From a candidate division FCPU426 bacterium (lineage in GTDB: Bacteria > Oederibacteriota > Muellerivitia > Muellerivitales > Muellerivitaceae), in the NCBI GenBank assembly GCA_963771075.1, contig CAVYSE010000013.1:1-14339 (forward strand): a stretch of DNA of 14,339 bases, written 5' to 3'. The translations under genes and the position numbers were made by a program. Positions 276 to 13,780 of the stretch are shown in pieces. Each line of letters opens with the position of its first letter. Within the stretch, counting starts at the first letter, position 1. The notes beneath the pieces are model-generated. The model made no database searches. It saw only the letters and a list, made by a program, of their open reading frames with translations, and was not told where the DNA came from.

Positions 276-358
276 GGCCGCTAAAACAACCGCTTCCCTC
301 ACGGCGCCGCCAGCCGTACCGCCCTGCGGGGAGGGTTGAAGGGGTCGTTTTCGGGGCC
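276..358. other. GC-rich branched stem-loop element
   Basis: 276-296 is complementary to 338-358 at 17/21 positions and 297-300 pairs with 331-334. These enclose hairpins ACGGC/GCCGT (301-317) and CCGC/GCGG (319-329). Confidence 0.5.
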
Positions 359-435: not shown

Positions 436-2589
436 TTACGGGTTACCCTTTTTTCCCGGAAAAACCATTTCCCTCACGCCGGTCACCAGCCCCTTCGACT
501 CCGGCTCACGGGAGAGGTCAATCACGAGCCCCGAGGGTTTTTGGGTGGTGACGGGGTCCGAAATATCCATCTCACTCCGGGTGACCAAGGTGCCCTCCAC
601 TTGGAATTCCTCCGATTGATCGTCCGACCTCAATAGTTTCGCGTCGCCCGAGGGTTTGAAACTTTCAACCAGCTTATGTTCGCCGATTTCCTTGATCTTC
701 AAAGCGATTGGAAAGGCTTTGAAAAAAGCGCTGGAATAGCCTGGGCTCAAATATTTGTTGAGTTTGGTTCTCCTGCCCAACAGGTCGTTGTAATCCGCCG
801 CGTAAAAGACCTGGGCGAAAGCCTGGGCGGTTTTTGATTCCGCGTTGATTTGGTTGAGAAGGTCCAACTGGGACTGGCCCGAAGGGTTAGTCGAAGGTCT
901 ATTATCGGTAGCCGATGGGGCCGATTTAGTCGGCAGTCGACGGTTCGCAGCCAGAGCACCAATTCCCTTTTCCGGAATTGGCGCGCTCAAACCTTGTTCC
1001 TCGGTTTGAGACCTCGGAACAGAGGGCAGGGAAGCTTTAGGCGAAATATGAGTGGTGGAAGTTGTTGGGTTTTGGGTTTCACTGAAACCAACATTCGTGC
1101 CTTCCTTTGTGTCTTCGTGTCTTTGTGTTGGATTTGAAGTTCCCGGGGTTGGAATTGTCGTGGGTAGTGGTTGAGGAACAGCCTTACTATCGCTTTCCCA
1201 AGGGTTTACCCAAGACCCCACCCAATGGATTACTCCAGAAGCGGTTCGGCTCAACAAGCCCCTTAGCCCTGCCGGGTGGAAGAAGAATAGATAGAGCCCA
1301 TAAGCTAGGCCCACCACCAAGGCGATACCCACCACGCCCTGGGTTATTTTCTTGGCGGGCTTGCCCACCACCTCCCCCAAGAACCTTAGAGTGCCGTTCA
1401 AGGCCTTTTTTAGGTGTCGCCCAACCCAGCCGATGGACTTCTTGGCCGGGGGCCAGGTTGTATGCCAAGTCCAATGCAAGATCCGGCCAAAGAAGGCCGC
1501 TACCAGGAATAGCTTTTCCCAGAGGGCGAGGTCTTGCCCTGCCTTGATCTTGGCACGGATGGCCTTGATCCAGGGGATGCCGGCCATGGTGCCCCAAAAC
1601 ACCGACTGGTCGTCGCTCTCAAGGCGACGGCCATGACCTGTCTGTGCCGATACCATAGGGGTATCGGTGCGAGACTCACCAGGATCATTTTTAGATTCTA
1701 GATGGACTGTTTCTGGCGTATCGGTTGGGGCTGTTTCCCCCGTCAAGGGTTCGGACGGTTTGACCCCCTCGACCTTGGGAGAAGTACGCGGGGTGGGAGT
1801 GGGTCCTTCAGGATAGGCGGATGGGTGGGCCTTATTCTGAACTTTCATGGCTTTTATGTTTTCCGCCACTTTTTGGGAGGTGTATTCCTCAGGCCGATTC
1901 CCGGCCTTAATCCAGGCGACGTAGTCCTTGACCTGGGATTCAGTCATCTGTTCATCAATGGCCACCTGGAGGGCCCGGTAAACTTGGTCTTGGGTCTCGG
2001 GGGGGATGAGGGGGTAGGGGTATAGTTTTTGGGGTTCCCCCCCCTCGGCCAAGTCTTTCTTGGGACGACCCGCTTTGAGGCCGGTACCAGGGCCCAAGGC
2101 GGCCAATTGGGAGACGGCCAACTCAGAAATACCCTGAATTCCCTTATTTAAAATGTTCGGGTCCCGAACAATTGCCTCCCTGGTTTTCGGGTTTAGTAAC
2201 GGTAAAAGCTTAAGCGCACGGTTAACCCTATCCAACTCGATCCCCAAATACCCCTTTATCTGCCTTTGGGTCACATAGGGGTTGGCCTTGATAACCCTTT
2301 CGACATCCTGGTAATCCACCCACCAACCCCGCTGGTCAACAACGTTATCGATCCGGCCTTTGACGACCGTTTCCAACTCGCTAGGGTTGGTGATATAGCA
2401 AGGGGCCTTATCCTTTTGAAGCCGGTTTAAGGCGATCAAACGCCGGTTGCCGCTGAAGACCCAATAGTGGAAGTCCTCCACCCGCCAGGGGCGGCCTTCC
2501 AGGGTGATCCGGGGGTTCTCGGGATGGATCTGGACCCCTTCGGCCAGGGGTTGGGTGCGGTTGAAGAAAAAAAAGTGCCTGGCCAACAA
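436..2589 (-). CDS. ParB-like (GxRR + HTH) / transmembrane / VirB8-NTF2-like fusion protein, probably 5'-truncated
   Basis: YWVFSGNRRLIAL matches ParB box II. DN at residues 81-82 sits at the EN position, and TQRQIKGYLGIELDRVNRALKLL is a ParB-type HTH. It also has Pro/Thr-rich linkers, a hydrophobic helix GVVGIALVVGLAYGLYLFFF, and a C-terminal AQAFAQVFYAADY...KYLS followed by beta strands. The TTG start has no RBS and ParB box I is missing. Confidence 0.75.
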   Translation of the reverse strand: MLARHFFFFNRTQPLAEGVQIHPENPRITLEGRPWRVEDFHYWVFSGNRRLIALNRLQKDKAPCYITNPSELETVVKGRIDNVVDQRGWWVDYQDVERVIKANPYVTQRQIKGYLGIELDRVNRALKLLPLLNPKTREAIVRDPNILNKGIQGISELAVSQLAALGPGTGLKAGRPKKDLAEGGEPQKLYPYPLIPPETQDQVYRALQVAIDEQMTESQVKDYVAWIKAGNRPEEYTSQKVAENIKAMKVQNKAHPSAYPEGPTPTPRTSPKVEGVKPSEPLTGETAPTDTPETVHLESKNDPGESRTDTPMVSAQTGHGRRLESDDQSVFWGTMAGIPWIKAIRAKIKAGQDLALWEKLFLVAAFFGRILHWTWHTTWPPAKKSIGWVGRHLKKALNGTLRFLGEVVGKPAKKITQGVVGIALVVGLAYGLYLFFFHPAGLRGLLSRTASGVIHWVGSWVNPWESDSKAVPQPLPTTIPTPGTSNPTQRHEDTKEGTNVGFSETQNPTTSTTHISPKASLPSVPRSQTEEQGLSAPIPEKGIGALAANRRLPTKSAPSATDNRPSTNPSGQSQLDLLNQINAESKTAQAFAQVFYAADYNDLLGRRTKLNKYLSPGYSSAFFKAFPIALKIKEIGEHKLVESFKPSGDAKLLRSDDQSEEFQVEGTLVTRSEMDISDPVTTQKPSGLVIDLSREPESKGLVTGVREMVFPGKKGNP
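2565..2585. repeat. REP-like repeat, degenerate copy 2 (AGAAAAAAAAGTGCCTGGCCA)
   Basis: Direct repeat of 143-162. It lies where the GC-rich ParB-like coding sequence gives way to AT-rich DNA. Confidence 0.5.
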
Positions 2590-2660
2590 TCTACACTTAA
2601 GGTCGCATTACAAATAAAACTCATTAACTCGCTCGAAACTGATTATACCTTTCTTCTAGG

Positions 2661-2855
2661 TTACAGAATAAATACGGAATATTTGCCATTCTTTTTAATT
2701 GAGGGGAAAAGTTGAGCCCCCATGGATTGATCTGGGGTGGCCCCGGAAGTCTCTAAGATACCCATTTCAAGGGCACGTTTTGTTATTTCTTTGTAATGAA
2801 GAGGTTCTTTTGACTTCTTCAAAACTTCTATTGCGGCGGCCTTATATTTGTTCAA
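2661..2855 (-). CDS. HARE-HTH (HB1/ASXL/restriction endonuclease-type winged HTH) protein, stand-alone or truncated
   Basis: KAAAIEVLKKSKEPLHYKEITKRALEMGILETSGATPDQSMGAQL fits this family. The ORF stops before the usual final wing strand. Confidence 0.75.
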   Translation of the reverse strand: MNKYKAAAIEVLKKSKEPLHYKEITKRALEMGILETSGATPDQSMGAQLFPSIKKNGKYSVFIL

Positions 2856-2875
2856 TTTAATATACCCTTAAATCT

Positions 2876-3052
2876 TTACTTCTTCTTGTAAACGTTTAGG
2901 CCGACCTTTTCATCCCGTTCAGGGATCGTGACGTTCCCCTCGGTTGAGGCTACGATTGTGGTCTTGCCGGAAGAGGAAGGCCCATACTCCTTGGACAAAT
3001 CCACTTTTATAGTGAGGATATTTCCTTCAACTTTCATTTCGACGTTTTTCAT
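2876..3052 (-). CDS. 58-aa small hypothetical protein (not in the ORF track)
   Basis: Manual translation: MKNVEMKVEGNILTIKVDLSKEYGPSSSGKTTIVASTEGNVTIPERDEKVGLNVYKKK*. AAAGGA RBS upstream of ATG 3052; TAA at 2876-2878. Confidence 0.85.
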   Translation of the reverse strand: MKNVEMKVEGNILTIKVDLSKEYGPSSSGKTTIVASTEGNVTIPERDEKVGLNVYKKK

Positions 3053-3176
3053 TTAATTTTCCTTTAATCTAACTCTAGCTATGGTCCCGTAAAAATAATA
3101 GAGATGTAACGAGGTTGATTATAAATCCTAATGGATTCGGGCTGTGGTTTTTCAGGCGGGTAAAAAGAACTACCAA

Positions 3177-3611
3177 TTAGCTATTCAGGGAGCCTTCGTA
3201 ATCACTGTATTCTTCGGTTTTCCATTGGTGGCCGCAAGCTGGATCTTTGCATTGCCAAGTGTTTTGAATGGTCTGTTCCACTAATGTCACTTGTTCCTGG
3301 CGGGTGATTTCAAACCCCTGGTTGAGTGCGAAAAGATTGTTGGAATAGAGTACGCCCTGATCCACCCGCTTGATGGTCTGGCGTTTTTCATGTTCGCCGG
3401 TGATTTCGTGTTTCAGGAGATTCTTTTTGAAGAAGCCTTTGCATTCAGGGCAACGGGTGTCGAATAGTTTCGTTACCGCCCAATGAATCGGGGCAACGGT
3501 AAGCCCGAATCCCCAAACTAAAACCACAAAAGCGAAGCAACAAACTATGACGATGAAACCATAATGAAACAGGTGAGGTAAAAAACTGGTTAGAAGTTCC
3601 ATGGGCTTCAA
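3177..3611 (-). CDS. Membrane-anchored zinc-ribbon-like hypothetical protein
   Basis: N-terminal hydrophobic stretch, then CPEC and CKDPAC cysteine pairs separated by about 60 beta-rich residues. Start may be TTG 3611 or ATG 3602. Confidence 0.75.
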   Translation of the reverse strand: MKPMELLTSFLPHLFHYGFIVIVCCFAFVVLVWGFGLTVAPIHWAVTKLFDTRCPECKGFFKKNLLKHEITGEHEKRQTIKRVDQGVLYSNNLFALNQGFEITRQEQVTLVEQTIQNTWQCKDPACGHQWKTEEYSDYEGSLNS

Positions 3612-4361: not shown

Positions 4362-7300
4362 CTATGAATTTCTTAAACTTTCCCACCATGCATAAAGGTG
4401 CTCCCCACAGATATTTTGCAGGTCTTGTTTATCCGCCAAGAATGAATCTCCCCGCGAGTAATCCGAGGAAATATCTGCGTAACCTGCGACTGAACTATCA
4501 AATCCGTCCATTGACAACAAAATCTTGAGGAGGACCTGAAGCCAAACTAATGTTTTCATACGGTAAAACCATCCTGACGAATCGATGGATTGAACCCTCG
4601 GCCGTTCAAACCATCCCAACAAAACCTTGTGTGTTTCCCTAATTCTTGAAAAATACTGCCGTTTCTTTCCATCGTCTAACGAAAGTAGGAGATGGGCTGC
4701 CACAGCAGTGGCTTGCACATCCACATAAACATTAAAATAGTATTCGGAAGTTGGAGATTCTTGGATTTTCTCAATCAATGGGTCCAGCCATATTTGTGTC
4801 GCGTCTTCCAAGGAACACTTACTAGACTTGATTAGTTCAAGGCCGATTTCTTGGTAATTCAGGAGTGACCAGCATTCACTTCTTCCGTCACACACCAAAA
4901 CCAGTTTTTTAAACAGAGCAATGTTTCCAGCTGGAAATAGTTGAAGGATATTTTCGATCAACGCCTTTCTTAGCATTTCATTCTCAACGGTACTTGCCCC
5001 CCCTTTTTGCATCGACCTCACATAAACGCCATTTATCCAATCCGAGAAAATCAGCACCCGTTCTTCGATTGTGAAGCAATCCATAAACGATCCAAAACGC
5101 GCCATCACTTCAAACGGTGGTTCGTTTTGAAAAATGGTGGTTGCGGCCAGAGCTTTTATCCAAGGTGTTTTAGCCTTGCACAAGCCCGTAATAAGTTCTT
5201 CGGACGGTTTGAAGGACACCAGGAGATGAAGCCCATCAAAACCTTGGTCCATCAAAAACAAGTCCGTTTCAGTCCAATCCGCACGTTGAAAAACCGTGTC
5301 AATAATCTCGACCAATGCTTTTGGATCAACCGACTCCAAAACGCTAACGGCCATCGATATCGAATAAGGACCCACCAAAGGCAATCCCCTTAAACCATAT
5401 TTCTGAAAGCGATTAGATATTTCTAAGATCACTGCAAAATCAACAGCTGATTTCCGCGAGTTATATATCTCCCGAAGCCCTTCTAGGGTGTTGCCCTTGA
5501 TCCCAATCGGTTGATTTCTTATTTCGTCATCAAGCAAAAAATCGGAAAGAAGTTTTTTTAAATCGTCATTTTTTTCCACACAAGTGTTGAACTCCTGAAA
5601 CCGGCTTGATCTTGCTAAAACCTCGCCACAGTCCCGCCATATTTCTTTGAAATGATCAGGTGCCAGCCCGGAAAGACGGCTAACAACATCTTGTAGGTCA
5701 ACCAAAGGTGAAGATAAGTTGAACTCATCGGGCTCCAAAAACAGCCCATCGGCTTTGAGAACATCTCTGATTTCTGAAACTCCAATAGTCTCGTTAACCT
5801 TACCGGGCATCAAAAAGGAGAATAGCTTTCCGGGTTGGGTGATAACTTCAAAAGCTTTCTTGAACAAAGGTGGGCTAGGCGAATCTTTAGGTGGCTGGTA
5901 AAGCGTCTCAATTTTCCGGGTACCCAATATGGCATTATTTTGGATTTCATGGCGGACATATTCTTCAATCGGACCCAAGACATCATCAGGCAAGGGAGTG
6001 ATGAGAAGTGGATAATTCACCATGGCCTTTTGGATTGAGTTTGAGAGGTTGTATCCAGCGAAAAGTCGCCCGTCCCCGTCCCAAAAAAGAACATACCGAT
6101 CATGAAAAATCCGCTTCTGGGCCCCCGAGACTGTCTGCAAGTCCAGAATCCTAATACCACGGTGACGAAGCCTCTCTTCGTTGGCCGCGCAGTATTCTCT
6201 GATAACATCGGCCCTTAATTTCTCTACAGGTTCATTATTCCCAGGCTTGACAGGATCAATGCCCTTCCCAGGGTGGCCCTGCTTCTCAGATACTGTTCCT
6301 GATCCAGACCCGTTCGGCCCAGCTTCAGGGCCTTTCAAAGTTTCGCCATTTTCCGTTTGGTCGATTTCCGCCTCGTCGATTGATATGCATTGGGTATTAG
6401 TGACCGCCACCAGTTCAGTTTCGCTAGCGTTCACCCTCAGCAAAACATCCACCCCCAAAGAGCTGAAGTAAGGATCGACGATTAGGCAAGTTTGCGCCTT
6501 GTGGATATTGCAGACCTTCGTAAGCCAATCGGCGATCAGGGTGGAACGCTCCTCGTTCGTTTTTCCGGAGGGACGAATAAAAACGGCCGTTGATGGAGCG
6601 GGATTTATTTTTTTCTTCAGCAGATCCATGTTCCGACCGATTGGATTCCAAGGGTCAAATGGATATCGCAGCACGCCTTGGTCCCTAAAGAAAAATTGAG
6701 CGGGAGGACGTTTGCGGTCGATCTTTCCACCAGTCAGGGATAACAAACGGTCCAACCATGACGATTTCGGGACTTTTGGGTTCCCTATTCGCATTTGAAA
6801 TTCCATTTTCCTCAAAACATTAAATCGTTCCTGGTACCAGAGTGTCCAACGGTCTTCACCAGGCACTCTTTTGTAGACTTTCACCTCGCTTTCAGTAATA
6901 GGTTCGGAAAATCGAAATTCAAACTGCCTGTCGGAGGGAAATCGCCCGGCTCTACACTGATCGGACAGCAGGTCATTGCCGTTAAAAGAAAGGCACCCGA
7001 CGATAATTTCGGATGAAACAGGAAAAGCGTCCGCTAAGATTTCCACCTTTACACCTTCACACACAATGTTCCCGATCAGGCCTTTTTTAAGGTCCTCCGG
7101 GGATCGAACCGCCCCTGTTGCCGGGTCCTTAACCTGGGTTTGCGTGGTGACCTTGCAAAGGGATTGTTCAATAGCGTCCTTCGATGGATAAGCAATCCAT
7201 TCAATATTGCCCAAGCGTTTAAAATCCGTTTCATGAAACGAAAGACCGGTTTGGAGCGCCAGGTACTCGACCAAATCCTTCAGCAGTTCCTCGGCCCCAG

Positions 7301-7910
7301 GGATCAATTCGTCGTTTCGCATCCTCCACAAAAGAGTCTTATCCGTGCGGAACAACGTCGCAACCATCGTGACCGCGTCTTTTATCGGACTTCCGCTGCC
7401 CTTCAGGTCGTCCGGGACTACCCTCAAGACATTTTCTGGCAATCCTGTCACTGGAGGCCTGAACACGAATTCGGACTTAGGCAAACCGCGAATCCCTAGC
7501 TTCAAATCAGAATAATCAGGATCGACGGTTGGCAGGCACAAGTCCGAGGCGGCCTCCCCTAGTGACCGACCCTCGAAGAGTTTTTGCGCAACCTCGACTG
7601 TTTCCCGTCCCTTGAGAGTAATTGCGATCTTTCCGACCTCTGGTTTTTTAAAGGTCCGATCAATCTCGTTCGAGTCATAGAAATTCTTGAACGTAGAAGG
7701 ACTCCAGTTAGAACCCGGTGGCACCTTTAACAGCGAGACCATTCCATAAACCACCCGTGCGACCCAAGCTCCACTCTCCTTGTACCTCATGGCCCAAAGT
7801 TCCAACCGGACATCAGCCTCACCGGTTAGTGGGCCAAAAGAATGATGAGCGGTTGGGAGAGCCGAAAGGATTATTGCAAGGTTTTGAATTTCTAGGCTTT
7901 TGGAATGCAT
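4362..7910 (-). CDS. Large PLD-superfamily-like (HDR motif) protein, VPA1262-family-like; putative defence nuclease
   Basis: Central CLIVDPYFS, IFHDRYVLF (6093-6104) and GYNLSNSIQ motifs, with a long helical C-terminus. ATG 7910 is preceded by GAGGGG and lies 1 nt after the upstream stop. Confidence 0.7.
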   Translation of the reverse strand: MHSKSLEIQNLAIILSALPTAHHSFGPLTGEADVRLELWAMRYKESGAWVARVVYGMVSLLKVPPGSNWSPSTFKNFYDSNEIDRTFKKPEVGKIAITLKGRETVEVAQKLFEGRSLGEAASDLCLPTVDPDYSDLKLGIRGLPKSEFVFRPPVTGLPENVLRVVPDDLKGSGSPIKDAVTMVATLFRTDKTLLWRMRNDELIPGAEELLKDLVEYLALQTGLSFHETDFKRLGNIEWIAYPSKDAIEQSLCKVTTQTQVKDPATGAVRSPEDLKKGLIGNIVCEGVKVEILADAFPVSSEIIVGCLSFNGNDLLSDQCRAGRFPSDRQFEFRFSEPITESEVKVYKRVPGEDRWTLWYQERFNVLRKMEFQMRIGNPKVPKSSWLDRLLSLTGGKIDRKRPPAQFFFRDQGVLRYPFDPWNPIGRNMDLLKKKINPAPSTAVFIRPSGKTNEERSTLIADWLTKVCNIHKAQTCLIVDPYFSSLGVDVLLRVNASETELVAVTNTQCISIDEAEIDQTENGETLKGPEAGPNGSGSGTVSEKQGHPGKGIDPVKPGNNEPVEKLRADVIREYCAANEERLRHRGIRILDLQTVSGAQKRIFHDRYVLFWDGDGRLFAGYNLSNSIQKAMVNYPLLITPLPDDVLGPIEEYVRHEIQNNAILGTRKIETLYQPPKDSPSPPLFKKAFEVITQPGKLFSFLMPGKVNETIGVSEIRDVLKADGLFLEPDEFNLSSPLVDLQDVVSRLSGLAPDHFKEIWRDCGEVLARSSRFQEFNTCVEKNDDLKKLLSDFLLDDEIRNQPIGIKGNTLEGLREIYNSRKSAVDFAVILEISNRFQKYGLRGLPLVGPYSISMAVSVLESVDPKALVEIIDTVFQRADWTETDLFLMDQGFDGLHLLVSFKPSEELITGLCKAKTPWIKALAATTIFQNEPPFEVMARFGSFMDCFTIEERVLIFSDWINGVYVRSMQKGGASTVENEMLRKALIENILQLFPAGNIALFKKLVLVCDGRSECWSLLNYQEIGLELIKSSKCSLEDATQIWLDPLIEKIQESPTSEYYFNVYVDVQATAVAAHLLLSLDDGKKRQYFSRIRETHKVLLGWFERPRVQSIDSSGWFYRMKTLVWLQVLLKILLSMDGFDSSVAGYADISSDYSRGDSFLADKQDLQNICGEHLYAWWESLRNS

Positions 7911-7911
7911 C

Positions 7912-8103
7912 CTACCCCTCAAACTTTTCGATAATCTTCACTTGCTCTTCTTCCCAAGATTGGAGGGGAAGGTTTTTATTATCAGTTTCAATTTTTAATA
8001 TCCTCCCCTTTCCATCCTTGGAAGGAACAATCTTCTTGACCCGCCCCACGATCTTGAACCGCTGGTGCTGAACTAGGTCGTTTAGGTATATTCTCTCATT
8101 CAT
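7912..8103 (-). CDS. Small SH3/Tudor-like barrel protein
   Basis: DLVQHQRFKIVGRVKKI...WEEEQVKII; translationally coupled to the PLD-like gene. The fold is inferred. Confidence 0.65.
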   Translation of the reverse strand: MNERIYLNDLVQHQRFKIVGRVKKIVPSKDGKGRILKIETDNKNLPLQSWEEEQVKIIEKFEG

Positions 8104-9047: not shown

Positions 9048-11408
9048 TCAATTGAGTTTACTGTTCACCATCTCTTCGATCTCCCTGATAAAGGTCTTCT
9101 GCTTTTCGTTCCCCGGACGAATAAAGAATAGTTGTTTCCGTGCCCTAGTGATCGCCACGTACATCAAGCGCCTTTCCTCGGCATTCTGAAAGTTTTCCCT
9201 CGGGGCAGCAACCAAATCTAAAACAGGGTCGTCTTCAATAACGCTCGGGAAGCTATTCTTCTTGGGCGGTATGATAAAAACATAATCCGCTTCCAACCCT
9301 TTTGATTTATGGATGGTCATATATTCAATTTTCAGGCTTTTGAAGGTTTTTTGTAATTCGGTTAAATATACTGGGACATCTTCGTTGTAACGCCCCAAAA
9401 AGTAGACGCTGGCCCCTTTTCCTCTTTCAAACTTATCGATTGTTTCAATAAACTTTTTCACGATGCTTAGATTATGAACCCAAATGACTAGATTTTTTTT
9501 GGGGGTTTGATGAAAGCTCCTGACCGTCTTTGATCGTTGATGAGGATTCTTTTCTATAAACTTTTTCCCTAAATCGACCACATTCGGGTATGACCGGTAG
9601 TTGACCCCTATTTCCACCACCTTATTGTTTGGAAACCTTTTTTCAAAATTTTGGATCATTCCTACGTCGCTACCATTAAACCGGTAGATGGATTGCCAGT
9701 CATCACCGACGAAAAATAGATGGCAATTATCGTTTTTATCCCCAATAGCCCGGATTAACTTAATAGCTCCCTGGGCCGTATCCTGGAACTCATCGACAAT
9801 GATGTAACGAAACCTCAAACCCAATACCGGGAAAGCCTGATTAACGTATTGTAGGGATTTATTCAGCATATCGCCAAAATCAATTTGTCCCTCCGACTCA
9901 ATGGATGATTGGTAGGAATCGTAAAAGATCCTGAAAATTTTGAGGAAAGCTAGGTTACGCAACCTGTAGATGCTCGGCCCGTCCTGTGCCCTTACCGTTA
10001 AATCCTCAAAATTCAGGCCGCTGGTCTTAAAAAGGTCCGCAAACTTCCTAAGGATTTTATTCAGGAATTGGCTGACATCGCTTTTCCGGATTAGCTTATC
10101 CAGGTCAACCGGCTGTTCACTGAATTTGACCCCTTCCCCGCGAAGCATCTTTTCTAATTCTGTCTCAAGGATGCCATCGGCTTGTTGATGGCTGTATGTG
10201 CAAATTAATTTCGTATTATTGGTCTTGTGGAGCAATTCCTTCCATTTCATTCCCTCAACGTACTTTTTCTTTTCTTCATTCGTGAACCAAGGCGGAGGAT
10301 TCCCTTTTTTATCCACTCCAAAATGTTCAAGATAAATCCCATAGTCCGTCAAATAAAAATCAGGCTGGTACTGCCTTTTCTCCAGAGTTTCGGTTGGAAT
10401 TTCGTATGGCTTTTCGTATTCAAAACTCACTCCTTTTCTGAAAAGAAAATTTGCAATGACTTTTTCCTCAAGGCTTTTGACTTTATGGTTCGAAAGAGTG
10501 TAAAGGTCCCCAAGGTCCGCCACATACTCATCCCATTCTTTTTTCGTCTCAAAATCATATTTGGGAATATACGGCTTTAGGTAACCCGAGAAATAATTGA
10601 GAACCCCTTCATAGAATTCCTTATTCTTTAGGTAAAGGTCTTTAAAAATTTGAAAATCCAGGAAACCTTGGCTGTTTCGAGTAAGAGCGTCGTCCTTTTC
10701 CAACATCCGGGGTTTCTTTTTCGAACCCCGGGTGATGATTTGGTAACCCAGACTATGGATTGTACGGCATTCAACATCCCCTATCCCGTACCAGTCTTTT
10801 ACCCGACGTTTCATTTCCTCTGCGGCCTTCTTTCCGAAAGTCAAAAGCAGGATATCCCCCGGATCAACCTTCTTACATTTCACTGGGTAACCCACTTTAG
10901 CCGCGATCACAGCCGTTTTACCGCTTCCGGCACCCGCCAAGACAAGGGTGTTGTCCTCGTCGCATATAACCGCCCGGCGTTGGTCATCATCCAAGGGGTT
11001 TGAACCGGACTTATCAAAAAAGTTCTTAAAGTTGGTTAATTCATGGCTAACGAAGGTTTGGTTGTAGGAGTCTCTTGGTTGTAGTTCATCATTGCAAAGG
11101 GAACCGAATTGTTTCCACTTCTTCATCAGTTCAGGTTCAAAATTGAAATCAGCCAACAAATCAAAACCTTTTTCAATAACAACCACCGTTTTGCTTAACC
11201 AAACCTGGGCTTTCTTTTGATTAAAATATCCAGCGCCAAATTCCTGGTAACCATTAAATTCATTAATCAGGGATTCCATTTCGGCTTGAAAAGCTTTGCC
11301 TTTTCCAGGCTCCAATTTTCTTTTGAGAAAATTCGGTTTGAATTTACGGAACAATCTTGCGAAGAAATCCCACAAATGGCCTTCATTTTTTTTGGACCTA
11401 TCCATCAA
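9048..11408 (-). CDS. UvrD/helicase IV-like SF1 DNA helicase with an inserted PD-(D/E)XK-like nuclease domain
   Basis: Q motif LDDDQRRAV, Walker A LAGAGSGKT, RTIHSLG, Walker B IIVDEFQD, VGDDWQSIYRFNG, NYRS, MTIHKSKGLE and EERRLMYVAITRAR. Insert: KSLEEKVIANFL...YEKPY...YQPDFYL...IYLEHFG. Confidence 0.93.
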   Translation of the reverse strand: MMDRSKKNEGHLWDFFARLFRKFKPNFLKRKLEPGKGKAFQAEMESLINEFNGYQEFGAGYFNQKKAQVWLSKTVVVIEKGFDLLADFNFEPELMKKWKQFGSLCNDELQPRDSYNQTFVSHELTNFKNFFDKSGSNPLDDDQRRAVICDEDNTLVLAGAGSGKTAVIAAKVGYPVKCKKVDPGDILLLTFGKKAAEEMKRRVKDWYGIGDVECRTIHSLGYQIITRGSKKKPRMLEKDDALTRNSQGFLDFQIFKDLYLKNKEFYEGVLNYFSGYLKPYIPKYDFETKKEWDEYVADLGDLYTLSNHKVKSLEEKVIANFLFRKGVSFEYEKPYEIPTETLEKRQYQPDFYLTDYGIYLEHFGVDKKGNPPPWFTNEEKKKYVEGMKWKELLHKTNNTKLICTYSHQQADGILETELEKMLRGEGVKFSEQPVDLDKLIRKSDVSQFLNKILRKFADLFKTSGLNFEDLTVRAQDGPSIYRLRNLAFLKIFRIFYDSYQSSIESEGQIDFGDMLNKSLQYVNQAFPVLGLRFRYIIVDEFQDTAQGAIKLIRAIGDKNDNCHLFFVGDDWQSIYRFNGSDVGMIQNFEKRFPNNKVVEIGVNYRSYPNVVDLGKKFIEKNPHQRSKTVRSFHQTPKKNLVIWVHNLSIVKKFIETIDKFERGKGASVYFLGRYNEDVPVYLTELQKTFKSLKIEYMTIHKSKGLEADYVFIIPPKKNSFPSVIEDDPVLDLVAAPRENFQNAEERRLMYVAITRARKQLFFIRPGNEKQKTFIREIEEMVNSKLN

Positions 11409-11569
11409 TAACCAATCTTATGAATTTTGGCGCACGGTTTTTTCAACTTTTAATCTCACTCACGGTTTCCATTCTCCTTTTTACTTTTTGGAGTTTTGAT
11501 GGCTTGAAGCCAACAAAGTCAGAAGAACGAATTTCGTTTTAATATCCTTTTTCTTATTCATTTCATTCA

Positions 11570-12050
11570 TCACCTTGGCTCAAATAGCTTTCTCAATTTT
11601 TCAATGTAATCCACCGGCAAATGATGTTCCACCGCTCCTGTTAAAATGACGTTTAGATAGTCTCTGCTGGGCCTATAGATTCCCTTTTTTATAACCTCGT
11701 AGGTAATAACATCGGATACCGATTTCTCACCCACCAGAATTTCAACCCGAAATTGCCTATAAACACCCGAGGGGACCCCCTCTTTTATGTCAATGTTATC
11801 TAAAGACCTTTTGTCCGTTTCAAATAAAACTCCCCAGACCGTCTCATTTATTCTTCTCACAATATCGGCGACCCCTCCGTTGCGGCGGTTTGATTTGTGA
11901 GTAAACGCCAATTGAAAATCTTTCAAGATGGCAACTTTAGGGTTGTTGAGGCTGATTTTGGAATGGTTTTCAACACACCATTTTCCCCAGGTCTTCCGAA
12001 TTCATATTTGAGCCATACGCGAAATAAAGGAAGGAATTGGATTGGTTCAT
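11570..12050 (-). pseudogene. Gamma-glutamylcyclotransferase (GGCT/AIG2-like), one frameshift (real or sequencing error)
   Basis: ATG 12050 gives MNQSNSFLYFAYGSNM, the GGCT signature. Removing one base from the GGGGAAAA run at 11981-11988 joins it to the ORF 11570..11926 (GVADIV...VWGVLF...DIKEGV...PSRDYL...GAVEHHLP..YI), giving 159 aa. Confidence 0.85.
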
Positions 12051-12183
12051 TTTGTTTATTCCGGGATTAATTTTTACGGATTTTACCCCTTCTCCAGAAT
12101 GGTGTGGACGGAAGAAAATCCTCCGGCTTTTGAAGAATGAATGATCCACTCATAAAAGGGGAGGTTGAAGCCCACGGACCGGG

Positions 12184-13203
12184 CTAACTATTTTTTCCGT
12201 TAATCTCAATTTGAATTTTCTCACAACCTGCCATGATCTTCCCAAAACTTGGCGGGCTTTGGATCAAACCCGCTTCCGTCATTTTTCCATAATCCGCTTC
12301 TAAATCCCTGTAAGCCTTGCCCTCGGGAACCAATTGGATCTTCCCCTTTATGGCATCAAGGTAACTGATGGGTTTCCCTTTTGAATCCTTTTCCTTGAAA
12401 AACATTCCCTTGTGACGGGCAACGCTCAGGGCCAAGTCCCTGTCCCCCAGGGCGTCCGCGAAATAAACCGTTTGTGATATTTCAACCAGGTCGTACCAAT
12501 GGCGAGAAAATCGCACGCTGGGAGCTTCCTTTTGGCGGCAATAGACATGAACCGCAGTGGCTTTCTCCCAAAAGGTTCTTTCAATGCGCATGACATTGGG
12601 TGAAGCTTCGGGAAATACCAATTCCGGCATCTTGGCTGCCATATCACAAGTGATGAGTTTCTTTTCATTCGGCTCACCGGTTGACCGCGCGCCAAACTCA
12701 AGTTGTACCGAGGGGCTAACATAATCGGAGCTTTCGGTTAAGGGCGGGTAATAGATCAGGAGTTTTTCCCCTTCCTTCCCACTGGTAGCGAGCCTGGCAT
12801 CCAGCTTGTTTTGTTTGAGGGCTTCCGAAAGGATCGGCCTGACTTTCCCGGTAATCCAACCCGGTAGGCTTTTCCTGATTATGTCGGACCATTTTTTCGC
12901 CTTGCTGGCGGTGGCGGGAATACCGTTTTCACCGGCCTTAATTTCAGGAATGAATTCGCGGATGTCGCAGGTCAGGTCGATATCCTCTGAGAACCGGTTG
13001 ATGGCGTTATAGGCTTTGGAAAGCGACGTTCCGCCCTTGAAAGTAAGTGCCGGGGCGATTGCGGATTGGAAAAGCGCCGATAGGGTCCAGACAACCCAAA
13101 CGTCCTTTTCCAGCAGGTAGGCCGGGCTTCCTATCCTTGCCGAGGCGGCTTGCAGGGCTTCCTTGCGATCCGACCTTGAAAGGGAAAAGTAGGACTCAGC
13201 CAA
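12184..13203 (-). CDS. abiEii: AbiEii/AbiGii-family nucleotidyltransferase toxin
   Basis: LEKDVWV, LTFKGGTSLSKAY..INRFSEDIDL, ERTFWEKAT and SRHWYDL motifs. The start overlaps the antitoxin stop (TTGGCTGA). Confidence 0.93.
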   Translation of the reverse strand: MAESYFSLSRSDRKEALQAASARIGSPAYLLEKDVWVVWTLSALFQSAIAPALTFKGGTSLSKAYNAINRFSEDIDLTCDIREFIPEIKAGENGIPATASKAKKWSDIIRKSLPGWITGKVRPILSEALKQNKLDARLATSGKEGEKLLIYYPPLTESSDYVSPSVQLEFGARSTGEPNEKKLITCDMAAKMPELVFPEASPNVMRIERTFWEKATAVHVYCRQKEAPSVRFSRHWYDLVEISQTVYFADALGDRDLALSVARHKGMFFKEKDSKGKPISYLDAIKGKIQLVPEGKAYRDLEADYGKMTEAGLIQSPPSFGKIMAGCEKIQIEINGKNS

Positions 13204-13780
13204 GTTGGCCGGCTTCGCCCAGCAATCGGGCGATCCATTCCGGGAATGAGGCCCTCGAAGCGACCATCACTTTCCACTCTTCCTTTGAGATTTTTTGCCG
13301 GATTTTGACAAGGGCCTCCTGCCCAGGGTATCCAGCCAAGGCCCGGACGGCCATTCCGGCAGGCCGGTTGCCCAGGACAACTGCCACCGGGGCGCGTGCC
13401 TGAAACGAATGGTTCGTTCCCGAGTTTCATGGTGCGGTTCCTGCCGGATGTGAAGAACACTTCCTCGACGGGAACCTCGGTGGTCAGGCCAAGTGCGTTG
13501 GCCGCGACCGCGCCATTCGGGGACACTTCCTCCCTTTTTTGACCGCGATGGACTGGATGACGGCTTCCGGGGAGGGGGGGCGGCTGCCAAAACGACCTAC
13601 CACGGGGGCCACATATGCGCCTCTCTCAACCCGGATCAATTTCCCGGCTTTCGTCAGGCGGGTAAAAGCCTGATCCACGGCGGCGCGGGTGTTTTTTCCC
13701 AAAAACTCCTTGGGGGACAATACGCTTCCCTCCGGCTTTGCCTTGGACGAGCTAAGAATGGATTCAATGAGGGGGCTCAT
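13196..13780 (-). pseudogene. abiEi: AbiEi-type (DUF6088-like) antitoxin, split by three single-base deletions
   Basis: Consecutive fragments in shifting frames: ...RAAVDQAFTRLTKAGKLIRVERGAY.../SPNGAVAANALGLTTEVP...FFTSGRNR/RTIRFRHAPRWQL/VLGNRPAGMAVRALA...FPEWIA. Shifts fall near 13533, 13419 and 13378. GGAG RBS upstream. Confidence 0.85.

Follow-up and report, generated by a model that had tools for sequence, protein, structure and literature searches.

The window analysed here (i.e., the entire 14,339-base contig C13 of a 4.39-Mb genome in 28 contigs, referred to as G000) carries a gene of a real and unusual family that is known here through a damaged copy. The family members are genuine fusions of a ParB-type DNA-clamp region, a predicted transmembrane (TM) helix and a VirB8-like domain, and, judging from their sequences, most members with an intact clamp likely bind a palindrome located within their own coding sequence. 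This gene-internal palindrome had been overlooked in the initial annotation and points to the DNA that would be tethered.

Layout of the window gene and its truncated 5′ end

As initially annotated, the frame from 436 to 2589 on the minus strand is open for 717 codons, and its GNRR motif, DN motif and HTH lie where that annotation had placed them. The features of the gene and its immediate surroundings are the following:

436–2589, minus strand: ORF of 717 aa, a 5′-truncated member of the ParB–TM–VirB8-like family (continuous open frame)
2564–2594, strandless: non-homologous flank, a REP-like short hairpin, source of the TTG and first 9 codons (blastn to contigs C3 and C11 ends at 2563)
2320–2562, minus strand: rest of the ParB CTPase domain, with box II GNRR at 2440–2451 and box III DN at 2344–2349 (conserved motifs, Spo0J/Noc profile match)
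2206–2274, minus strand: HTH, with recognition-helix residues –3 (R173-equivalent) and –2 at 2230–2235 (Spo0J alignment, model of the C11 paralogue, covariation)
2154–2170, strandless: perfect 8-1-8 palindrome within the ORF, predicted to be the likely cognate site (palindrome search)
2141–2148, minus strand: conserved AATAAGGG box, 14 nt from the palindrome centre (comparison across units)
1615–1870, minus strand: Pro/Thr/Ser-rich linker 1, presumably cytoplasmic (composition)
1345–1614, minus strand: amphipathic, basic, conserved segment preceding the TM helix (hydrophobic moment up to 0.63)
1279–1335, minus strand: predicted TM helix (hydropathy 2.35)
874–1195, minus strand: Pro/Thr/Ser-rich linker 2, presumably extracytoplasmic (composition)
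457–867, minus strand: VirB8/DotI-like NTF2 domain, homologous to the lineage's post-VirB4 bitopic ICE protein (structure model and profile comparison)
299–358, minus strand: vestige, i.e., the final 19 codons and stop of a type-B domain, the alternative C-terminus (aligns with type-B gene 3′ ends on contigs C1, C11, C18 and C27)

The two Pro/Thr-rich linkers noted previously were evident from a Pro/Thr/Ser content of 35% and 43%, and the TM helix anticipated at about 1280–1340 was recovered by prediction at virtually that position. The segment preceding this helix is common to 11 other loci of G000. Neither Pfam nor NCBIfam yielded a match for the 717-aa ORF, and no sigma-70-like promoter was found when sought in 2300–3200.

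The gene does not begin at the TTG of the ORF, since this TTG and the first nine residues are foreign to the gene and paralogue similarity ends at 2563. DNA identity with the C3 paralogue amounts to 98.7% over 2,563 nt, and the similarity to the C3 and C11 copies ends at the same nucleotide, beyond which the flank stands in place of 63 N-terminal residues of the intact paralogues. These residues include box I, in agreement with the earlier remark that the window copy lacks this motif. Words related to the flank recur near other family genes. Contigs from four public runs (three studies) all ceased to match at 2563, with at least two of them continuing into an intact N-terminus, and among the contigs listed for these runs no piece bridged the 2563/2564 junction. 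The truncation of the window copy is either strain-specific or an assembly error; contig C13 overlaps the start of contig C2 as well (97.8% over 1,573 nt). Because the truncation junction has no independent support, the claims made below apply to the family, from which the biology is read, and the window copy itself, devoid of box I and a native start, is probably inactive or mis-assembled at its 5′ end.

Downstream of the stop codon of the window gene, the type-B remnant records a domain swap. The repeat at 287–359 was also considered as an oriT, which was rejected because it corresponds to the end of a type-B gene.

Three short palindromic repeat families are represented in the window (at 1–36, 146–170 and 180–207), which occur genome-wide in G000 and separate small cargo genes in arrays. 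Family 1 is 36–37 bp long (30 matches), family 2 has a 28-bp, 11-6-11 structure (86 matches, both strands counted), is often preceded by TTAC and often abuts a repeated sequence resembling a group II intron end, and family 3 is a REP-like hairpin; these repeats are possibly REP/Y1-transposase or cassette recombination sites. Furthermore, a 1,186-aa ORF at 4362–7922 (minus strand) has no Pfam match and contains an HDRY motif, which we take to suggest a PLD-like nuclease domain, and the region 9048–13780 holds a UvrD-like helicase with a weak endonuclease-like insert, an AIG2/GGCT gene and an AbiEi/AbiEii pair of which the antitoxin is apparently split.

Copies, architectures and spread of the family

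A search of 1.84 billion representatives with a profile of the C-terminal domain of the window gene (referred to as type A) retrieved 118 proteins. Among the 60 representatives of at least 400 aa, the family HTH was present in 56 and the ParB N-domain in 35, indicating that the fusion is genuine. The assembly chimera of two halves, against which the initial annotation had cautioned, was ruled out by this wide co-occurrence in homologues. Strong type-A profile matches occurred in 9 of the 41 genomes searched, with up to 12 copies each, all within the host family and none in a genome outside it, and a GTDB-wide locus scan returned only 2 loci.

G000 itself contains about 20 family loci, whole or fragmentary, which are mosaics of several ParB types, membrane segments and C-terminal domains. 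The position of the type-A domain can be taken by an unrelated domain (type B), a short tail, or a second ParB without TM helix, and many family members indeed have an unrelated C-terminal domain or lack the TM helix. At the hisS locus, family genes or pieces thereof were present in three of four congeners, suggesting that some copies are vertically inherited, and the G000 and G002 copies at this locus differ in helix and site. Tandem double-ParB members without TM helix (L014:9044–10699, L053:715–2385, downstream of hisS in G000 and G002) have a palindrome in the first repeat only. A separate branch lacks the CTPase domain (HTH–TM–VirB8-like; L098, L082, L085, L099, L100, L102 and others) and has lost the internal palindrome as well.

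The ParB-type N-terminal region

The ParB-type N-terminus proposed earlier was borne out by the family profile, with E-values of 5e-15 for Spo0J (1vz0) and 2e-12 for Noc. Noc, ParB and KorB structures were matched by a model of the intact C11 paralogue (Foldseek; best match 7nfu, Noc, E 1e-8). The ParB motif residues G, R, D and N are invariant across 11 aligned family members, intact members display the box I, II and III motifs together with the ParB N-domain fold, and the HTH DNA-binding domain follows the CTPase domain (Spo0J alignment and C11 model). By its motifs and profile matches, the N-terminus of the family is of the ParB/Noc type. Intact members would probably clamp in a CTP-dependent manner; sequence does not reliably predict the nucleotide specificity of ParB-like proteins (PMC12704722).

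A palindrome inside the coding sequence

Gene-specific palindromes of 17–23 bp were found to follow the HTH region, inside the ORF, in 47 of 76 rows versus 2 of 76 control windows, with 11 further HTH rows falling below the palindrome threshold. The palindrome centre is located exactly 64 nt from the recognition helix in 36 of these 47, and no palindrome was present in any of eight CTPase-less members or ten second-repeat HTHs. The 47 palindromes comprise 43 distinct half-sites. The exact arms of the window palindrome recur only in the near-identical C3 copy, and each of the seven G000 sites searched had one to three exact-arm copies, situated in its own gene(s) plus one orphan. A pattern in which only the outer letters were fixed gave 44 matches, spread over 12 of the 31 family genomes, and none in the reversed control; the inner 15-mers of these matches had at most one mismatch in 43 of the 44, as judged by eye. 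A single match of the pattern in a viral contig is a candidate at most. Since the bases flanking the palindrome centre pair in 43 of the 47, a double-stranded dyad fits better than a hairpin. Overall, these sites are likely bound by the proteins in whose genes they lie.

Covariation between helix and site was assessed over 133 columns in the 36 genes with the same distance, with the palindrome's own codons being excluded. Using a column shuffle, which ignores kinship, site base 3 correlated best with residue –3 (z 6.4; next column 3.8) and site base 5 with residue –2 (z 7.9; next column 3.1). Expressed as binary traits, which were picked after inspection, R at –3 goes with G at base 3 in 6 of 7 genes versus 0 of 29 (and Q with A in 2 of 2), and D or E at –2 goes with C at base 5 in 13 of 14 versus 1 of 22; both of the latter traits changed 10 times on a tree from which these columns had been left out. 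Tree-aware sign tests on these traits remained above 0.05 (median p of 0.0625 and 0.125), and the independent pairs (5.3 to 0 of 6 and 3.7 to 0 of 4) were not significant. Moreover, helix and site are just 64 nt apart, so that recombination could co-inherit both.

Residue –3 falls on the conserved Arg in the Spo0J alignment. Guanine is read by R173 in ParB and adenine by Q158 in Noc, and an R at position 201 reads a C:G pair (PMC7383237); in the family, an Arg at the 201-equivalent position goes with C in four of six genes. Bases 2, 6 and 8 of the site follow columns outside the helix, and no recognition code was visible in the 11 genes with a longer loop.

Units consisting of the palindrome plus the conserved box were found 37 times in G000, versus 1–4 times in shuffles. 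Family genes account for seven of these units, and about 20 more, with unchanged spacing, are orphans, of which some are situated in gene debris (C1, C3, C20) and some in compact arrays (C22 after rplI; C24). The orphan palindromes stay perfect or near-perfect, most of them without a resident cognate gene, and similar arrays occur in G008, G018, G021 and the metagenome loci L122 and L134. The arrays consist of three to nine different family-type palindromes with near-constant flanks, 60–200 bp apart (G000 C22:24170–24600, i.e., L178 10170–10600; G018 C1; G008 C46; G021 C104; L122; L134). L122 additionally contains in-frame tandem repeats of recognition helix plus palindrome. Finally, on G000 C12:7678–13673, rep-like, parA, parB, coupling protein and relaxase-like genes stand in a row, after which a separate cluster of odd-centred palindromes is found near L020 4393–5712.

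The VirB8-like domain, its ICE relatives and membrane topology

In line with the VirB8/NTF2-like C-terminal domain initially proposed, a wide VIA structure search with the predicted model (pLDDT 89.7) returned VirB8-like proteins in all of the top 12 rows (Z 10.9–15.8), with other NTF2 proteins at 10.8 or below. The best match was DotI (Z 15.8, rmsd 2.6, 129 residues aligned), and the VirB8-like fold is retained across the 118 representatives (50% clustering). A PDB sequence search with the domain gave a weak match only (IcmL-like 5cnl, E 0.63), and a meaningful Pfam match was obtained for 0 of 34 C-terminal domains. ESM Atlas leads for type A were unnamed clusters and ARC6-like, and a search of the same atlas at 0.9 gave nothing for type B.

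The closest relatives of the domain are ICE proteins of the same lineage. The ICEs of this lineage encode a bitopic protein of 180–230 aa immediately after VirB4, which is homologous to the type-A domain (hhalign 97.3% in one comparison and 98.1%, E 1.2e-13, in another). In each of 19 VirB4 clusters, the type-A profile matched the ORF that follows VirB4; such matches had been the basis for choosing about half of these clusters. A complex prediction of the C-terminal domain with the ICE VirB8-like protein scored 0.22 versus a mark of 0.32. Type B showed no similarity to nine ICE gene families, on which ground its derivation from these was rejected. A stand-alone 216-aa protein with a TM helix and a type-A domain (L040:1201–1848, on a 2.5-kb contig) is a possible intermediate between ICE subunit and fusion. 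The lineage also has a conserved ICE type without a VirB8 Pfam match above cut-off (G000 C3:383–398 kb and C8:62–74 kb; L198–L216), the content of which includes lipoproteins, an outer-membrane-like protein, a pilin-like protein, VirB6, VirB4, a VirB8-like protein and TPR-GGDEF, often also with an integrase, a coupling protein and a relaxase-like gene.

Among the long family members, 42 of 61 have one predicted TM helix. Around the last TM helix (52 members), K/R residues were more numerous before it in 35, equal in 13 and more numerous after it in 4, a charge bias that favours location of the C-terminal domain outside. Tethering with the N-terminus in and the C-terminus out is the probable arrangement.

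Genomic context and conjugation genes

No match to VirB4, coupling protein, relaxase, integrase or ParA was found in 53 family loci (about 5–8 kb on each side, less at contig ends), with ParA being searched via Pfam in the loci of the own genome and via BLAST with the C12 ParA across the 53 loci. Family loci thus have no adjacent parA, and the VirB4, VirD4 or relaxase neighbours that the initial annotation had proposed to look for were encountered in 0 of 53. Peripheral ICE pieces were present in two loci (L083, L093), no neighbour family was conserved across the 53 loci, and none of the 19 VirB4 clusters contained a fusion gene. The absence of VirB4, coupling protein and relaxase beside the 53 loci indicates that the fusion is not a channel subunit, as do the four of nine genomes without VirB4 match and the exchange of the VirB8-like domain for an unrelated one elsewhere. 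Of the tether to membrane or T4SS-like channel initially put forward, the link between DNA and membrane is therefore retained as the best reading, whereas membership of a T4SS is abandoned.

The four genomes in question (G002, G008, G012 and G023; 90–98% complete) have two to nine strong C-domain matches each. The VirB4-rich genomes G014, G020 and G024 showed no strong fusion-type match, and fusions and complete-looking T4SS clusters occur together in G000, G004 and G018. In G000, contigs C3 and C8 carry T4SS clusters, whilst C2, C12 and C27 encode coupling proteins. The family genes of this genome lie next to housekeeping genes, small cargo, TA modules and IS elements. TA and defence-type genes are frequent beside family genes. 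No oriT mimic was found in the gene flanks, i.e., no oriT-like sequence common to these flanks and the ICE loci.

A tentative explanation and its rivals

In the explanation that we tentatively favour, the dimer of an intact member would bind the palindrome inside its own gene and close as a CTP-dependent ParB-type clamp. The predicted membrane helix would hold this clamp, so that the locus of the gene would be tethered to the inner membrane, and the VirB8-like outer domain would dock on conjugation channels provided by ICEs in the same cell, thereby promoting transfer of the gene itself. With an own site for each paralogue, copies would not cross-load. The ParB motifs and fold, the palindromes, the HTH covariation, the homology of the C-terminal domain to the ICE protein and the charge bias speak for this explanation, whereas the VirB4-less genomes, the VirB4-rich genomes without fusion, the lack of a shared oriT and the swapped C-terminal domains speak against it, as do the non-significant tree-aware tests, possible co-inheritance, the orphan palindromes and the vertical inheritance at hisS. 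As a whole, it falls slightly short of an even chance, with docking and hitch-hiking on conjugation channels being a possible but doubtful part. A bolder and somewhat unlikely version holds that the genes are selfish single-gene elements, i.e., trans-envelope clamps with an address in their own coding sequence, of which helix and address would diversify together against cross-talk, and of which a stolen VirB8 domain would be plugged into ICE channels for export of the locus; the orphan arrays would then be an archive or decoy bank of past addresses.

The same self-loading tether might also function without T4SS contact if the VirB8-like domain were a borrowed periplasmic dimerisation module replacing the C-terminal dimer domain of ParB, in which case the tether would serve the gene via biased segregation, vesicle packaging or Noc-like local occlusion. 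VirB8 dimerises, the C-terminal domain can be swapped (types A and B, a short tail and a tandem ParB all occur; cf. the scar at 299–358), copies abound in genomes without a VirB4 match, and type B is unlike ICE genes, all of which suit such a module. Nevertheless, the nearest relatives of the domain belong to the ICEs of the same lineage and its fold has been kept throughout the representatives, and we regard this alternative as unlikely.

More unlikely still is a one-component transmembrane regulator, i.e., a KorB/BisD/VirB-type clamp that would act from the internal operator on its own gene and on adjacent cargo, with its outer domain responding either to an envelope cue or to the assembly of a channel. 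Although orphan ParB clamps do regulate transcription (PMC12704722), swappable outer domains suit sensors and some orphan sites are located upstream of genes, the site is usually single and mid-gene instead of at promoters, and no neighbour family is shared throughout the 53 loci.

It is quite improbable that the proteins are anti-conjugation sentinels or decoys, in which the VirB8 mimic would sense or poison the channels of an arriving ICE and the clamp would halt the cell or capture DNA, since fusions coexist with complete-looking T4SS clusters in three genomes and the self-site inside the gene is left unexplained. A precedent exists in Namtar, a membrane defence that depends on VirB8 (bioRxiv 10.64898/2026.07.06.735840), and both the frequent TA and defence-type neighbours and the differing specificity at the orthologous hisS locus would fit such a role.

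Lastly, the palindromes could be small mobile hairpins or template-switch products in a tolerant loop of otherwise ordinary orphan ParB fusions, as their codons lie in or beside a low-confidence loop (residues 201–206) of the C11 paralogue model, the genome is rich in short palindromic repeats and orphan arrays exist without cognate genes, but the fixed position across divergent types, the loss in CTPase-less members, the paired centre-flanking bases and a residue-specific covariation matching the ParB/Noc code make this very improbable.

If the proposed binding is true, the family would amount to a library supplied by nature, with 43 distinct half-sites and the HTHs that belong to them, in which the ParB recognition code is directly testable beyond the single ParB/Noc switch, together with candidate orthogonal DNA-labelling pairs. 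If docking is true as well, DNA would be able to parasitise conjugation channels in a novel manner, with neither a relaxase nor a coupling protein of its own.

Comparison with known systems

No published description of the family was found in the literature. A survey of ParB fusions (PMC12704722) does not use the words 'transmembrane', 'VirB8' or 'secretion' in its main text, and its supplements, which list ParB fusions, could hold members.

Noc (Bacillus/Geobacillus, NBS sites), which gave the best Foldseek match of the N-terminal region, is likewise a ParB-family clamp without ParA and links palindromic sites on DNA to the membrane, a link that is predicted on the side of the family. Noc has an N-terminal amphipathic helix and many dispersed chromosomal sites. 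In contrast, the membrane helix predicted for the family is integral and follows the DNA-binding domain, and the family has an outer domain, many paralogues, and one gene-specific site within each gene instead of many dispersed copies of one site. The best score with the Noc model TIGR04285 was 53 bits versus a cut-off of 315. Membrane binding by Noc is CTP-regulated (PMC12704722).

With chromosomal ParB/Spo0J–parS, the family shares the CTPase motifs, the HTH and apparently the same specificity positions (R173 and G201 equivalents). It differs in the lack of an adjacent parA, in odd-centred 17-bp sites that vary per gene, and in a 30-residue insertion in the CTPase domain, and G000 has, besides the family, a canonical ParB on C25 as well as two parS-like sites on C27. 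The likeness to VirB8, DotI, IcmL, TraM and TcpC lies in the predicted fold, the succession of TM helix and NTF2 domain, and the homology to the post-VirB4 gene of local ICEs, yet in the family this domain is fused to a DNA clamp, encoded away from T4SS operons and exchangeable for other domains.

KorB, BisD and Shigella VirB are soluble and act on promoters of their own element, and are not known to have a TM helix or an outer domain. Like the family, they are orphan ParB clamps, linked in their case to mobile elements (PMC12704722), and KorB was among the fold matches. Namtar is similarly a patchy host membrane protein of which the action depends on VirB8, but it has five TM helices and no characterised domain, and its description mentions neither a ParB nor a VirB8-like part (bioRxiv 10.64898/2026.07.06.735840). 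The parts of the family are known and no known system combines them; the family would work most like Noc, yet it falls outside Noc, ParABS systems and T4SS subunits alike.
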